Origin: Spirochaetia bacterium | Lineage (GTDB): Bacteria; Spirochaetota; Spirochaetia; CADAEX01 | Reading direction: 5' to 3' | Assembly: GCA_045606105.1 (NCBI GenBank) | Contig: JAZURI010000003.1 | Span: forward strand, 167,124 to 231,123 | Length of the DNA stretch: 64,000 nucleotides | In this document: positions 33,084-48,622 of the stretch, piece by piece | How the letters are laid out: each line of letters opens with the position of its first letter | Numbering within the stretch: position 1 is the stretch's first letter | Notes under the pieces: generated by a model | Seen by the model: only the letters and a program-made list of their open reading frames with translations | What the model was told of the DNA's origin: nothing | Databases searched by the model: none | Position numbers and translations under genes: made by a program

Positions 33084-33156
33084 CTCCCCCGGACAGACTC
33101 GAACTGCCGACCTAGTGGTTAACAGCCACCCGCTCTACCGGCTGAGCTACAGGGGA
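33084..33156 (-). tRNA. tRNA-Asn (GTT)
   Basis: Acceptor stem TCCCCTG/CGGGGGA, anticodon arm GTGG-CTGTTAA-CCAC, T-loop GTTCGAG. 73 nt; CCA is not encoded directly after the discriminator. Confidence 0.97.
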
Positions 33157-37080: not shown

Positions 37081-38619
37081 ATGATTTGTTTCAGAAACCT
37101 GACAGAAACAGCAGCCTTCGGAGAGCTTGTCCGTTATCATGAAAAAAACGGAGGGAAACTGCTTCTTACGCCGGAGTCTGTGAAGAAATATATCGTTCCT
37201 GCGGGAAAAAACCTTTATTTCAGCTATGGGGCAAAGGGGGCAACACCTGAGCTTCTGGAAATTTTCTCCCGTCTTGCATCTGAACAGCAGTGTGTCGGAA
37301 AGTACAGGGAACTGCTGGGAGGAGCTGTATACAATCCCGTTGAAAACAGAATGGTTCTCCATCATCTATGCAGAGGCTCCGAAGGGCTTCCGCTGAGCGA
37401 AAAATCGGCCGGAAAGGGGAGGTTTTTCATGGAACAGGAGAAAAGATTCTGTGATTTTGCCGAAAGCATCCGTGCCGGAGGAAAAACCGATACTGTTATT
37501 CAGATCGGAATCGGAGGCTCGGGACAGGGACCAAAGGCTGTATACGAAGCCCTTAAATGCTGTGTTTCCGCCCGCGGTAGAGAGCCTCTCCCTGAGGCCC
37601 GTTTCATGGAAAACATAGATCGGGACGAGGTTCTGACCATACTGGAGGGAATCAATCCCGAAAGAACTCTTTTCATATTGGTAACCAAAAGCGGAACCAC
37701 ACAGGAAACAATAGATAATTATTTACTGACAAAAGAAATACTCGAACAAAGAAATCCGGGCTATGACATTTATGCTCATACGGTTGCGGTAACATGTCCC
37801 GGTACTCCTCTGGATGATACCAGGTTTTCCGGTGTCTTCTATATGGATGAATCCATAGGTGGTCGCTTCTCCGTATGCTCCGCCTGTGCCGGTCTTCTTG
37901 TTGCCGCAGTATTCGGAAGCGATGTTTACAGGGAGTTCTGTAAGGGAGCCCATTACAGCGATATCCTGGCTCTTGAGCCTGATGTCTGCAGGAATGCCCC
38001 GCTGCTTGATGCCCTGTTCAGCATATATGATATAAATGTCCGTAACATACCGGTGACTGCGGTTATTCCGTATTCTAATTTCCTTCTTGAATTTACCTAC
38101 CATCTGCAGCAGCTCCTTATGGAAAGCAACGGAAAGACGGCAGACAGGAAGGGGGGAGCCGTAGATTATGCAACATCTCCTGTTGTTATCGGTTCCATAG
38201 GAACAAACTGTCAGCACTCATTTTTCCAGCAGCTGCATCAGGGCTCAGGAGAGCTGCCGGTGGAATTTATCGGATTCAGGGAATCTCAGATAGATTCTGT
38301 TCCTCAGACAAAGCTGAATGCCAGCCTTGCGGCCCAGATTTCCTCCCTTGCTCTGGGACGGAGCAGCCGGGACATAAACAGACATTTTCCGGGAAAAAGA
38401 ACATCATCCCTGTTGTTCGGAAACCGGTTGACACCGGAGAATCTGGGTGCATTGTTTGCCCATTTTGAAAACAAGACCATGTTTCAGGGCTTTTTGTGGA
38501 ATATCAACTCCTTTGATCAGGAGGGGGTTCAGCTGGGTAAGGATCTGGCCCGTGAGGTTCTTTCCGATATTTCAGAAAAGGATTCCATTCTTTCGGCCTA
38601 TTATTCACTTCTTTCGTAA
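37081..38619 (+). CDS. pgi: Glucose-6-phosphate isomerase
   Basis: ENRMVLH, GIGGS, KSGTTQET, GGRFS, QQLLMESNGK, QHSFFQ.LHQG, NSFDQEGVQLGK. Confidence 0.95.
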   Translation: MICFRNLTETAAFGELVRYHEKNGGKLLLTPESVKKYIVPAGKNLYFSYGAKGATPELLEIFSRLASEQQCVGKYRELLGGAVYNPVENRMVLHHLCRGSEGLPLSEKSAGKGRFFMEQEKRFCDFAESIRAGGKTDTVIQIGIGGSGQGPKAVYEALKCCVSARGREPLPEARFMENIDRDEVLTILEGINPERTLFILVTKSGTTQETIDNYLLTKEILEQRNPGYDIYAHTVAVTCPGTPLDDTRFSGVFYMDESIGGRFSVCSACAGLLVAAVFGSDVYREFCKGAHYSDILALEPDVCRNAPLLDALFSIYDINVRNIPVTAVIPYSNFLLEFTYHLQQLLMESNGKTADRKGGAVDYATSPVVIGSIGTNCQHSFFQQLHQGSGELPVEFIGFRESQIDSVPQTKLNASLAAQISSLALGRSSRDINRHFPGKRTSSLLFGNRLTPENLGALFAHFENKTMFQGFLWNINSFDQEGVQLGKDLAREVLSDISEKDSILSAYYSLLS

Positions 38620-38646
38620 AAATTCCTTATAAGTACAAAAAAATAC

Positions 38647-38739
38647 AAAAAAAACCTGCCGGCTGCATGATGGGGATTGCCGGCAGGAAATGTACACAAT
38701 AAAAGGAGGTGTTATGAAAAGATAACTCACTCTTAATTC
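38647..38739 (-). ncRNA. Candidate sRNA B (about 90 nt) with anti-RBS/anti-start seed
   Basis: Lies between promoter motif 38743-38772 and the terminator CCTGCCGGC-15nt-GCCGGCAGG-U8. Contains UUUUCAUAACACCUCCUUUU. Ends are inferred. Confidence 0.55.
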
Positions 38740-38742
38740 ACT

Positions 38743-38772
38743 TGATAAACAACCCTGAAATGCAATAGTTAC
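38743..38772 (-). promoter_or_regulatory. ECF-sigma-like promoter motif, copy 2
   Basis: Minus strand GTAAC-TATTGCATTTCAGGGT-TGTTTATCA. Confidence 0.6.
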
Positions 38773-38806
38773 AAAAAAAATAAAAAAATTTTTAAAAAAA
38801 TTAAAG

Positions 38807-38842
38807 AAAAAAACCTGCCGGAAGGAGAGACCGGCAGGTTTT
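38807..38842. terminator. Bidirectional intrinsic terminator
   Basis: A7-CCTGCCGG-aaggagaga-CCGGCAGG-TTTTATTTT; could end both pgi (+) and minus-strand transcripts. Confidence 0.85.
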
Positions 38843-38885
38843 ATTTTCTTACGAATAACTTTTATATTGGCTGTTTTGTTTTCTC
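38807..38885 (-). ncRNA. Candidate sRNA A (about 80 nt)
   Basis: Lies between promoter motif 38889-38918 and the terminator CCTGCCGG-UCUCUCCUU-CCGGCAGG-U7. Ends are inferred. Confidence 0.5.
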
Positions 38886-38888
38886 GTA

Positions 38889-38918
38889 TGATAAACAGCT
38901 CCGGTATCGGATAGTTAC
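38889..38918 (-). promoter_or_regulatory. ECF-sigma-like promoter motif, copy 1
   Basis: Minus strand GTAAC-TATCCGATACCGGAGC-TGTTTATCA; the two boxes and the 16-nt spacing match copy 2. Confidence 0.6.
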
Positions 38919-38924
38919 AAAAAA

Positions 38925-39314
38925 TTATAATTTTAATTCATCACCGGGAAAAATCTCTCCCAGGGTTCTTTCCGTAAGGTTGAAATCCCTGTCAGAAACT
39001 ATTATTACAGTATCCGGGTTGCCGAATTCGCTTATTACCTGCCTGCAGGCTCCGCACGGATAAAGTATTCCCTGGTAGTCGGGTGAAAATACTGCCGCCG
39101 CCCTGATGCTCCTGACTCCTGCCAGAACAGCTGCAGCCACCGCATTCCTTTCGGCACATACAGTAAGGCCGAAGGAGGCATTTTCAATGTTTGCACCTGT
39201 ATATATCCTGTCGTCGTTTCCCAGCACCGCAGCACCTACCCTGAGACCGGAATAAGGGGCATAGGCCTTCAGTGCAGCCTCTACAGCCGCTTCAATCAAA
39301 ACTCTCTTGTCCAT
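38925..39314 (-). CDS. cdd: Cytidine deaminase
   Basis: AYAPYS, GANIENAS, CAERNA, PCGACRQ. RBS spacing favours ATG 39314. Confidence 0.96.
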   Translation of the reverse strand: MDKRVLIEAAVEAALKAYAPYSGLRVGAAVLGNDDRIYTGANIENASFGLTVCAERNAVAAAVLAGVRSIRAAAVFSPDYQGILYPCGACRQVISEFGNPDTVIIVSDRDFNLTERTLGEIFPGDELKL

Positions 39315-39336
39315 AATCATCTCCTTATAAACTCAA

Positions 39337-39365
39337 TTGACAGTATAATATCACTATTATAAAAT
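39337..39365 (+). promoter_or_regulatory. sigma70-type promoter
   Basis: TTGACA-N17-TAAAAT upstream of ATG 39379. Confidence 0.7.
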
Positions 39366-39378
39366 ATAAAATTAATAT

Positions 39379-40146
39379 ATGAGAAAGAAATTTTTTCTTA
39401 TTATACCATTATTTTTTATTGTTTACTCATTTATTTTTCCGTGCAGGCCGGGAGCCGATTATTGTCTCCTGCCGGTCAGGGATGATTCTGCCTCTGTCAG
39501 GCCCGGTTCCGGCAGTAATCTGCGGACCGAAATATCCGATGACGGAAAAAGTGTGCTTTTCATGGATAATGAGGGAAAGTTTCTTGGGCGTTATACAGGC
39601 TCAGCTCCCTTTGCCGATGCCGATATGGCAGGAAGTACCATTGCTGCCGGATTTACGGACGGTACACTTGCGGTAACTGATGATAACGGCAGCTTTACCG
39701 AGCTGGAAACCGATTCTCCGGGAAGCATAGAAATCATATATTCTGTTGACCTGACGGAGGACGGCAGACATATTGCCGTGGTTTCAGGCTTATATCCCAA
39801 AAAGGTGCTTTTCTTTCATAAGACCCAGGAGCAGAAATGGGTTCAGGAGGGAAGTGTTGATATTTCAGACCATTTCCGAAGACATTCCTTTATTTATTTC
39901 AGCAGTGAAATTCTTCTGTTCGAGGATTTGGGAGGGCTTACCGGGATAGATATTGATAATCTGGAACGGTTCAGCATGGAATTTGACGGAGAACTGAAAA
40001 AAGTTCTTTACAATGAGGATAGAGAGCTGATTTTGGTCCGTGAAGGGGAATGGTTCCGTATTTTTTACAATGACGGAAAGCATATGGCTGCCGTACCGTG
40101 TCCGGATGACCGGGATATGGCAATGCCCGATATAAAGGAAATGTAA
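39379..40146 (+). CDS. Exported hypothetical protein (beta-propeller-like)
   Basis: N-terminal signal/TM segment; WD-like blades (IAAGFTDGTL, SVDLTEDGRHIAVVSG). Confidence 0.65.
   Translation: MRKKFFLIIPLFFIVYSFIFPCRPGADYCLLPVRDDSASVRPGSGSNLRTEISDDGKSVLFMDNEGKFLGRYTGSAPFADADMAGSTIAAGFTDGTLAVTDDNGSFTELETDSPGSIEIIYSVDLTEDGRHIAVVSGLYPKKVLFFHKTQEQKWVQEGSVDISDHFRRHSFIYFSSEILLFEDLGGLTGIDIDNLERFSMEFDGELKKVLYNEDRELILVREGEWFRIFYNDGKHMAAVPCPDDRDMAMPDIKEM

Positions 40147-48549: not shown

Positions 48550-48622
<73 letters not shown>

Follow-up and report, generated by a model that had tools for sequence, protein, structure and literature searches.

Why would a genome keep a near-ideal ribosome-binding site that opens almost no reading frame? 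The question is raised by a 64,000-nt stretch of a Spirochaetia genome (GenBank assembly GCA_045606105.1, contig JAZURI010000003.1, positions 167,124 to 231,123 of the forward strand), hereafter called the window, from whose first letter all coordinates are counted unless another contig is named. On the plus strand, window positions 38701-38725 read AAAAGGAGGTGTTATGAAAAGATAA, and these letters are exactly what a first-pass annotation made from the sequence had described, namely a perfect ribosome-binding site and ATG that lead only to Met-Lys-Arg-stop. The Shine-Dalgarno (SD)-like AAGGAGGT (38703-38710) is followed about four bases later by ATG (38714-38716), and TAA (38723-38725) closes the open reading frame (ORF) ATG AAA AGA TAA. 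The element lies in the 305-bp intergenic spacer between pgi and a cytidine/deoxycytidylate deaminase gene (cdd), a spacer that holds two tandem units on the minus strand, here named A and B. Our analysis of this genome (G000; 1.46 Mb, 99% complete) and its relatives indicates that the flagged sequence is probably the antisense image of the seed of a minus-strand small regulatory RNA, which would form the small-RNA arm of an extracytoplasmic function (ECF) stress response and act by blocking translation initiation.

The flagged element is not a gene start

The 8-mer AAGGAGGT by itself is no more than chance. Counting both strands, the genome has 77 copies of it, mostly inside genes, and base composition would predict about 44; in full it precedes 5 of 1490 called starts, a count obtained with a crude gene caller that visibly misses some real starts. 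What raises the element above chance is its context together with its conservation, as it is retained in same-genus genomes in which the surrounding spacer has diverged.

This conservation did not extend to a coding sequence. Across 30 related loci, the ORF that begins at the corresponding start codon comprises 1, 3, 7-33, 56 or 141 codons, and no plus-strand ORF conserved in both length and sequence was found among them. The ATG itself, read on the strand opposite to the predicted RNA, is kept in 28 of the 30 loci; G005 has no start codon and G050 has TTG, and in G016 a stop follows immediately. In G006/L018 the frame is shifted by the loss of 1 nt from the hairpin loop, relatives differ in the length of the A-run that follows the ATG, and MK(K/R) alone recurs. 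The flagged element is not a gene start, and the conserved plus-strand ATG is explained as the image of a conserved CAU in the minus-strand RNA.

A predicted small RNA on the minus strand

Read on the minus strand, 38701-38725 is UCUUUUCAUAACACCUCCUUUU, and as RNA it forms the putative seed UUAUCUUUUCAUAACACCUCCUUUU, composed of an anti-A-run, an anti-AUG (CAU, the complement of 38714-38716) and the anti-SD CACCUCCUUU, the last being 10 nt identical to the genome's own 16S 3' tail GGAUCACCUCCUUUCU. The predicted small RNA B (38647..38739, minus strand) would measure ~93 nt from its putative start to the end of its U-tail, with the start placed 6-7 nt after the -10-like GTTTA of an ECF-type promoter-like motif at 38746..38773 (minus strand; TGTAAC at 38768-38773, 17 nt, GTTTA at 38746-38750). 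At the other end lies a Rho-independent terminator (38647..38687, minus strand), whose 9-bp stem CCUGCCGGC/GCCGGCAGG pairs 38655-38663 with 38679-38687 around a 15-nt loop and is followed by a U8 tail (38647-38654). The predicted fold consists of a weak 5' hairpin, an unpaired CAUAACACCUCCUUUUAUUGUGU and then the terminator, and the unpaired CAUAACACCUCCUUUU stretch has ten bases identical to the 16S 3' tail. A GUUAU/AUAAC mini-hairpin and a UCCCC in the terminator loop had both been pointed out in the first-pass annotation; the former is seen in the predicted fold and the latter is present. A simple promoter/terminator scanner reported no sigma-70 promoter for unit B and missed both terminators of the spacer, the loops of which exceed its 8-nt limit.

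The tandem neighbour directly upstream of B, predicted small RNA A (38807..38885, minus strand; ~79 nt), has the same layout. Its ECF-type promoter-like motif (38892..38919, minus strand; TGTAAC at 38914-38919, 17 nt, GTTTA at 38892-38896) starts 6 nt after the deaminase stop codon, and its terminator (38814-38838, minus strand) carries the loop UCUCUCCUU (the minus reading of 38822-38830) and a U7 tail at 38807-38813.

Both units are found between pgi and cdd in nine same-genus genomes, and the seed core is conserved in the 9 loci. The polarity of the signals in these spacers points to the minus strand. In G000 and its same-genus relatives, both spacer hairpins are preceded on the plus strand by an A-run, which is a U-run after the hairpin on the minus strand, and no plus-strand T-run follows the unit-B hairpin in the five genomes inspected. 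The U-runs on the minus strand, together with the missing plus-strand T-run after the first hairpin, indicate that both hairpins are minus-strand terminators. The combination of upstream motif and downstream hairpin with U-run on the minus strand is common to all 18 units, an A and a B from each of 9 genomes.

The terminator of B combines a G+C-rich stem and a U-run on the transcribed strand with compensatory changes in the stem. In 35 distinct aligned relatives, the stem is paired in 95.3% of cells of an alignment that was itself fitted to the model, with slid controls reaching 21-66%; both sides change in 6 of 8 stem pairs, and none of 500 shuffles reached the observed score. Whole-family MAFFT alignments (A5) misplaced the stems and were left out of the pair counts. 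The stem of A likewise shows a compensatory change (CCGG/CCGG versus CUGG/CCAG). The conserved core of these loci is the complement of an idealised initiation region, that is, AAGGAGG, 3-4 nt, AUG and an A-run, which agrees with the earlier proposal that the RNA mimics the complement of SD, AUG and A-run.

A family of related, predicted RNAs in Spirochaetia

In three other genera, the RNA is single-copy, occupies a different location and is divergent from an unrelated gene. This different context suggests a self-contained gene rather than a feature of the cdd or pgi mRNA, and, along with the conserved promoter motif and terminator polarity, it bears out the assignment of the functional strand to the minus strand in the first-pass annotation. 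Of the 20 genomes of the family that were searched, from 4 genera, 17 have exactly one match to the pattern TGTAAC-N17-GTTT-N20-50-CCTCCTTT, and its reversed control matched nowhere. A looser pattern of promoter and anti-SD matched 112 of 301 Spirochaetia genomes (47 of 135 genera), compared with 14 genomes in the reversed control, and CUUUUU(U)CAU-N2-3-ACCUCCUU is common to most, by inspection and not by count, of the looser-pattern matches listed. One such pattern match, in G019, comes without a terminator and was counted as a false positive.

The predicted folds of 30 loci were consistent with this layout, with a 5' hairpin in 29, the linker CAU-N2-3-ACCUCCUU, and a terminator in 30. Counted over 31 folded loci, the terminator is present in 30, and the exception, from a 58%-complete genome, has the look of a false match. 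A second (C/U)CUCCUUU lies in a 14-16-nt terminator loop in all 21 loci outside the genus of G000.

A covariance model, R1, was built from 20 sequences of other genera and families, none of them from the genus of G000. Its best match in the window is unit B, which it recovers at full length (38648-38737, minus strand; 31.3 bits, E = 2.5e-4), and at E <= 0.001 it has matches in 74 of 151 genomes of the class (43 of 88 genera). R1 also recovers unit A in six same-genus relatives (E = 3.5e-4 to 8e-3), the copies of G000 and G005 falling below threshold, and these matches fit A and B as diverged tandem duplicates. Unit A is probably such a diverged duplicate, the duplication having presumably taken place in the genus of G000; A would have kept the CUCCUU motif in the terminator loop and B the unpaired motif, both of which the ancestral single RNA would have carried.

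Two weak R1 matches, C11:129917-129973 (plus strand, E = 0.06) and C1:59629-59700 (minus strand, E = 1.0), are antisense to gene-start-like sequence with a strong SD and an MKR/MKK start, where the crude gene caller placed no start. Such a match to the antisense of gene starts is expected for an anti-initiation-region RNA. The two sites are candidate targets and at the same time a source of false positives, and since R1 can match the antisense of true gene starts, its weak matches need a check for promoter and terminator.

The RNA is co-distributed with an ECF sigma gene, described below, whose orthologue (E <= 1e-30) is present in 250 of the 301 genomes. None of 30 genomes from the three families f3, f11 and f26 has the sigma gene; the pattern likewise matched 0 of 30 and R1 0 of 15, and among 20 sigma-negative genomes listed by name the pattern matched only in the doubtful G019; related genomes are not independent samples in these counts.

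With the 4227 models of Rfam 15, two tRNA genes (33084-33156 and 48550-48622, both minus strand) were the sole matches at gathering score in the window, and ten related loci gave no match to such a small RNA at that level; the weaker matches near the region stem from the terminator, and all of them score far below the cut-off. The full-text literature searched, which lacks most subscription journals, yielded no account of such an RNA and little post-transcriptional work on Spirochaetia outside Borrelia and Leptospira. We conclude that the element is a member of a small RNA family, widespread in Spirochaetia and linked to an ECF sigma, that neither Rfam 15 nor the literature searched contains.

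A promoter motif shared with an ECF sigma operon

The motif TGTAAC-N17-GTTTA has four sites in the 1.46-Mb genome, namely those of unit A, unit B and a sigma operon and one intragenic site; a rough estimate, made without shuffling, puts the chance number for 11 fixed bases at ~1. The site at C3:69657-69692, outside the window (locus L026, 1133-1168), stands directly before an ECF sigma/anti-sigma operon, so that in silico an ECF-sigma-type promoter motif precedes A, B and the sigma gene alike. The sigma factor has 175 amino acids (aa) with the domains Sigma70_r2 and r4_2 (NCBIfam sigma70-ECF superfamily) and is followed in the operon by a zf-HC2 anti-sigma with overlapping start, an exported 142-aa protein and a TIG-domain protein.

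Conservation of this arrangement was assessed by seeking the sigma orthologue in 41 genomes of the class and inspecting 30 loci. In 29 of them, (T/C)GTAAC-N16-18-GT(T/C)(T/A) lies just upstream of the orthologue, and the remaining locus reads TGTAAC-N17-GTTC. The -35 TGTAAC coincides in part with the last codons or stop region of cysS and persists there in reading frames that differ between genera. In the excerpts of the ECF group 16 literature cited here, the promoter consensus is (T/C)GTAAC-N16/17-CGAA, the start site lies 6 bp past the -10 box, and the sigma operon is autoregulated (PMC8315932, PMC3420878); this published consensus gives the -35 box and the spacing of our motif a precedent. 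The -10-like GTTTA ends 4 nt before the sigma ATG in G000. The ECF sigma gene appears leaderless, with the box ending 5-8 nt before the start in most of the 30 orthologous loci.

Further copies of the motif in the genome were considered as regulon members and set aside. The fourth strict site, inside an ORF for a 506-aa membrane protein, and a near-match lying antisense in a small ORF are probably due to chance. The copies or near-copies inside or antisense to coding sequence are those at C10:84882 and C9:47060 (both minus strand), which, if not chance, may represent internal or antisense ECF promoters.

The strand, architecture and conservation of the RNA, the promoter motif it shares with the sigma gene and its co-distribution with that gene are in silico observations. 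The first-pass annotation had arrived at the strand and the kind of molecule, both of which stood, and it contained neither the ECF-type promoter nor the link to the sigma operon, the second ancestral anti-SD motif or the class-wide distribution.

Proposed mode of action and predicted targets

From these features we infer transcription, sigma dependence, the start site and targets, in the following manner. RNA polymerase with the ECF sigma would start at the TGTAAC-N17-GTTTA promoter and yield a transcript with a weak 5' hairpin, an unpaired CAUAACACCUCCUUUU that copies the 16S rRNA 3' tail, and a strong terminator end. Upon release of the sigma by the anti-sigma, the RNA would accumulate and pair with the SD/start-codon regions of mRNAs. 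Preference would go to mRNAs in which a strong SD precedes an AUG-AAA-A start, a form typical of genes for exported proteins and lipoproteins in G000. Ribosome entry would be blocked, and a sigma limited to activation would gain a repressor arm. A gene for Hfq was not found in the 99%-complete genome, so that the RNA would depend for its pairing on the length and the G/C pairs of the anti-SD duplex.

Predicted pairing was ranked using RNAduplex against positions -40 to +30 of the 1490 crudely called genes, with signal peptides assigned by a crude hydropathy heuristic; the resulting structures allowed large loops, and ranks alone were used. The top-ranked sites are the start regions of an RND/HlyD adaptor lipoprotein (the best), a DksA-like protein and an Lsa36-family surface lipoprotein, along with two exported proteins of unknown kind and a LapA-domain membrane protein. 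Signal-peptide-like genes account for 6 of the 10 top predicted targets, versus 14.8% overall (hypergeometric p = 0.0012), and a Mann-Whitney test over the whole crude ranking gave p = 0.012 for a signal-peptide bias; plain anti-SD affinity showed no such bias. The predictions correlate with plain anti-SD affinity (r = 0.62). The bias of the ranking can be attributed to ATGAAAA starts, which open 64 of 221 signal-peptide-like genes compared with 53 of 1269 others.

Two further ideas about targets were rejected. Feedback on the sigma operon is not suggested by the ranking, in which its start regions stand at 313 to 753 of 1490. A 16-nt match between RNA B of relatives and the G000 gene after the anti-sigma (MKRFL...) is absent from the corresponding gene start of G002, the one relative inspected for it, and is considered a coincidence.

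Weighing the explanations

We favour a multi-target repressor of initiation serving the ECF response, with a target class that is unproven, and several results weigh against this view or against parts of it. Unit B of G000 is the weakest-scoring member of its family, with E = 0.0056 for R1 genome-wide, and R1 at E <= 0.001 misses G000's own more diverged copy. The -10-like GTTT is unlike the published ECF16 CGAA, and the genome has 7 region-4 matches, 4 of them above the curated cut-off, among which the reader of the motif is assigned from position alone. With regard to pairing, the predicted fold of the G000 RNA partly sequesters the anti-SD, and G005 reads AAU where others have CAU. The gap between the complements of SD and AUG is 3-4 nt in 28 of 29 start-codon loci and 6 nt in one, whereas the gap in genes of G000 is mostly 5-7 nt, and a single continuous duplex over SD and AUG should therefore be rare. 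The signal-peptide enrichment fades from the top 10 to the top 20 (p = 0.063) and the top 40 (8 of 40, p = 0.23), and complementarity to AUGAAAA makes it nearly automatic; the exported-protein targets that the first-pass annotation had preferred are the part of its idea that these figures leave unproven. For two top candidates, the predicted pairing weakens in orthologues from beyond the close relatives: for the RND/HlyD adaptor, complementarity judged by eye persists in G005, the nearest relative, and in part in G004, and is missing from two other genera, and the Lsa36-family lipoprotein has a strong SD and an MKK/MKR/MRK-type start in 6 of 6 genomes checked, a feature that is not specific. 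Parts of the region are present in one RNA-library run and in two runs of unknown kind, all available as assembled contigs; in the RNA run no contig lies over 38589-38839, which includes unit B, a result that is uninformative either way.

Part of this evidence would also suit a real ECF-controlled small RNA that is not a broad initiation blocker and instead has few specific targets, serves as an SD-like purine decoy or sponge, or competes globally with the 16S tail and damps translation under stress. In sequence the seed comes close to a generic 16S-tail copy and is not specific to a gene, the seed motif occurs twice per RNA outside the genus, and the target predictions are weakly discriminating, tied as they are to plain anti-SD affinity, with poorly conserved candidates among those checked. 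However, the CAU and U-run beside the anti-SD are conserved across families, and the opposite-strand ATG persists in nearly all related loci (28 of 30), which suggests recognition of the start region and not of the SD alone. Moreover, the anti-SD small RNAs described in the cited parts of two papers, the csRNAs (CiaR-dependent small RNAs of Streptococcus; PMC3091779) and FoxI (PMC9546586), act on mRNA initiation regions. We thus regard a role other than broad initiation blocking as unlikely. The position of A and B directly downstream of cdd on the same strand, and an RNA-library contig (38840-39265) that joins cdd and unit A in a type of library in which DNA may be present, could also be read as signs of processed or read-through pieces of the cdd 3' untranslated region (UTR), or of two terminators insulating the convergent pgi and cdd. 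This reading, which we hold to be quite improbable, is opposed by the motif of the sigma-gene promoter at a fixed distance in all 18 units, by the RNAs of other genera that lie away from cdd and pgi, divergent from an unrelated gene, and by sequence conservation from promoter to terminator far beyond the needs of a terminator.

Explanations that place the function on the plus strand fared worse. The strong SD, its usable spacing and the well-kept ATG are what the pgi 3' UTR would display if it contained a translated Met-Lys-Arg minigene or a decayed gene start; both had been named in the first-pass annotation, the latter as an outcome to be checked in relatives. The 30 related loci speak against them, with ORFs of 1-141 codons, shifted frames, nothing conserved past MK(K/R) and no full-length gene at this ATG in any relative, and neither promoter nor terminator polarity fits a plus-strand minigene; we consider this origin very improbable. 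Hardly any weight remains for a GGA-rich CsrA-binding RNA on the plus strand, another alternative proposed at the outset. Its AAGGAGG would be unpaired and GGAAGGAGAGA would lie in a hairpin loop, but the Pfam model for CsrA finds nothing in the 99%-complete genome, with control genomes responding, the promoter and terminator have the opposite polarity, and the GGA-bearing strand has no such signals and no terminator tail.

The ECF-linked initiation repressor accordingly remains our favoured explanation, and a broader form of it can be put forward tentatively, as possible rather than probable. The RNA may be an ancient, Hfq-independent and generic anti-ribosome-binding-site RNA, with two 16S-tail copies, an anti-AUG and an anti-A-run, present in about half of the Spirochaetia genomes searched, that upon envelope stress would stop lipoprotein and exported-protein mRNAs of the strong-SD, MKK type, its motifs having been split between A and B in the genus of G000. 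For annotation, the finding accounts for an "orphan perfect RBS" (ribosome-binding site) that recurs in these genomes, and it cautions against the calling of tiny ORFs at such places.

Neighbouring features of the locus

The spacer is bounded by pgi (37081..38619, plus strand), which encodes glucose-6-phosphate isomerase (Pfam PGI, E = 1.6e-88) and is convergent with the small RNA, and by cdd (38925..39320, minus strand; Pfam dCMP_cyt_deam_1, E = 3.5e-19), which lies upstream of A and B on their strand. The RNA-library contig over 38840-39265 covers the deaminase gene and unit A and ends at the top of terminator A; it would fit read-through from cdd into unit A, with the proviso that contigs cannot show transcripts. 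Divergent from the deaminase gene, a 255-aa ORF without a Pfam match (39379-40146, plus strand) has an exported-looking N-terminus, MRKKFFLIIPLFF, and a near-consensus sigma-70 promoter, TTGACA-17-TAAAAT, is present at 39337-39365. The arrangement of pgi, both units and cdd also occurs in a locus filed under an uncultured Ruminococcus metagenome-assembled genome (MAG; L025), which is nearly identical to the Spirochaetia MAG L019 and is probably a mis-binned contig.

Comparison with known systems

A sigma factor can only switch transcription on. Small RNAs give the envelope-stress sigma of enterobacteria, Vibrio and Fusobacterium a repressing function (PMC9546586), and the sigmaE-dependent small RNAs named in the excerpts cited include MicA, RybB and MicL of enterobacteria, VrrA and MicV of Vibrio, and FoxI of Fusobacterium (PMC9546586, PMC4102768). 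Similar to these, the RNA described here has the promoter motif of an ECF sigma that is predicted to autoregulate its own sigma/anti-sigma operon, a length of ~80-100 nt, a terminator hairpin and a predicted repression of envelope mRNAs at their start regions, and its host resembles that of FoxI, as characterized in the cited part of that paper, in having no recognisable Hfq (PMC9546586). Unlike them, it belongs to Spirochaetota, and instead of a target-specific seed it has a near-generic 16S-tail copy, which occurs two times in the putative ancestral form.

The csRNAs share a different set of traits with our RNA. Both have an unpaired region of anti-SD as well as anti-start-codon sequence between two stem-loops, which in the present case is a predicted structure, and both come in multiple paralogous copies under an envelope-related regulator; the excerpt cited gives CAU as an anti-AUG in 53 of 61 csRNAs (PMC3091779). 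The csRNA family proper is defined by a CiaR-binding repeat and a streptococcal host, whereas here an ECF-type motif, and not the site of a two-component response regulator, occupies the promoter region, the host is a spirochaete and not a member of the Firmicutes, and no csRNA match was obtained with Rfam. A terminator loop with a second anti-SD motif is also not described for csRNAs in that excerpt (PMC3091779).

A third point of reference is provided by the Cuckoo/CcsR RNAs (RSs0680) of alphaproteobacteria, which are stress-induced and, according to the parts of the sources cited, carry CCUCCUCCC in every loop of 2-4 hairpins (PMC4615179, PMC8034643). The spirochaete RNA is comparable in its anti-SD-like C/U-rich motifs in hairpin loops, its tandem or modular copies, and its variable stems with only the motif conserved. 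It differs in that ACCUCCUUUU occurs once unpaired and once in the terminator loop (as (C/U)CUCCUUU), and in its sigma factor and phylum; CCUCCUCCC was not seen in RNA loops of the folded spirochaete loci, and no Rfam match to Cuckoo/CcsR was obtained.

The RNA belongs to none of the three families, that is, the sigmaE-dependent small RNAs, the csRNAs or Cuckoo/CcsR. The FoxI paper, in the part cited, calls the conservation of that design striking and knows only one other example of a small-RNA-containing circuit that crosses phyla (PMC9546586). If our reading is true, the promoter motif, the RNA and the covariance model would together make the regulon of a conserved spirochaete ECF sigma accessible by sequence, and a class-wide ECF-linked small RNA would extend the pairing of a sigma factor with an RNA repressor to another deep lineage of bacteria.

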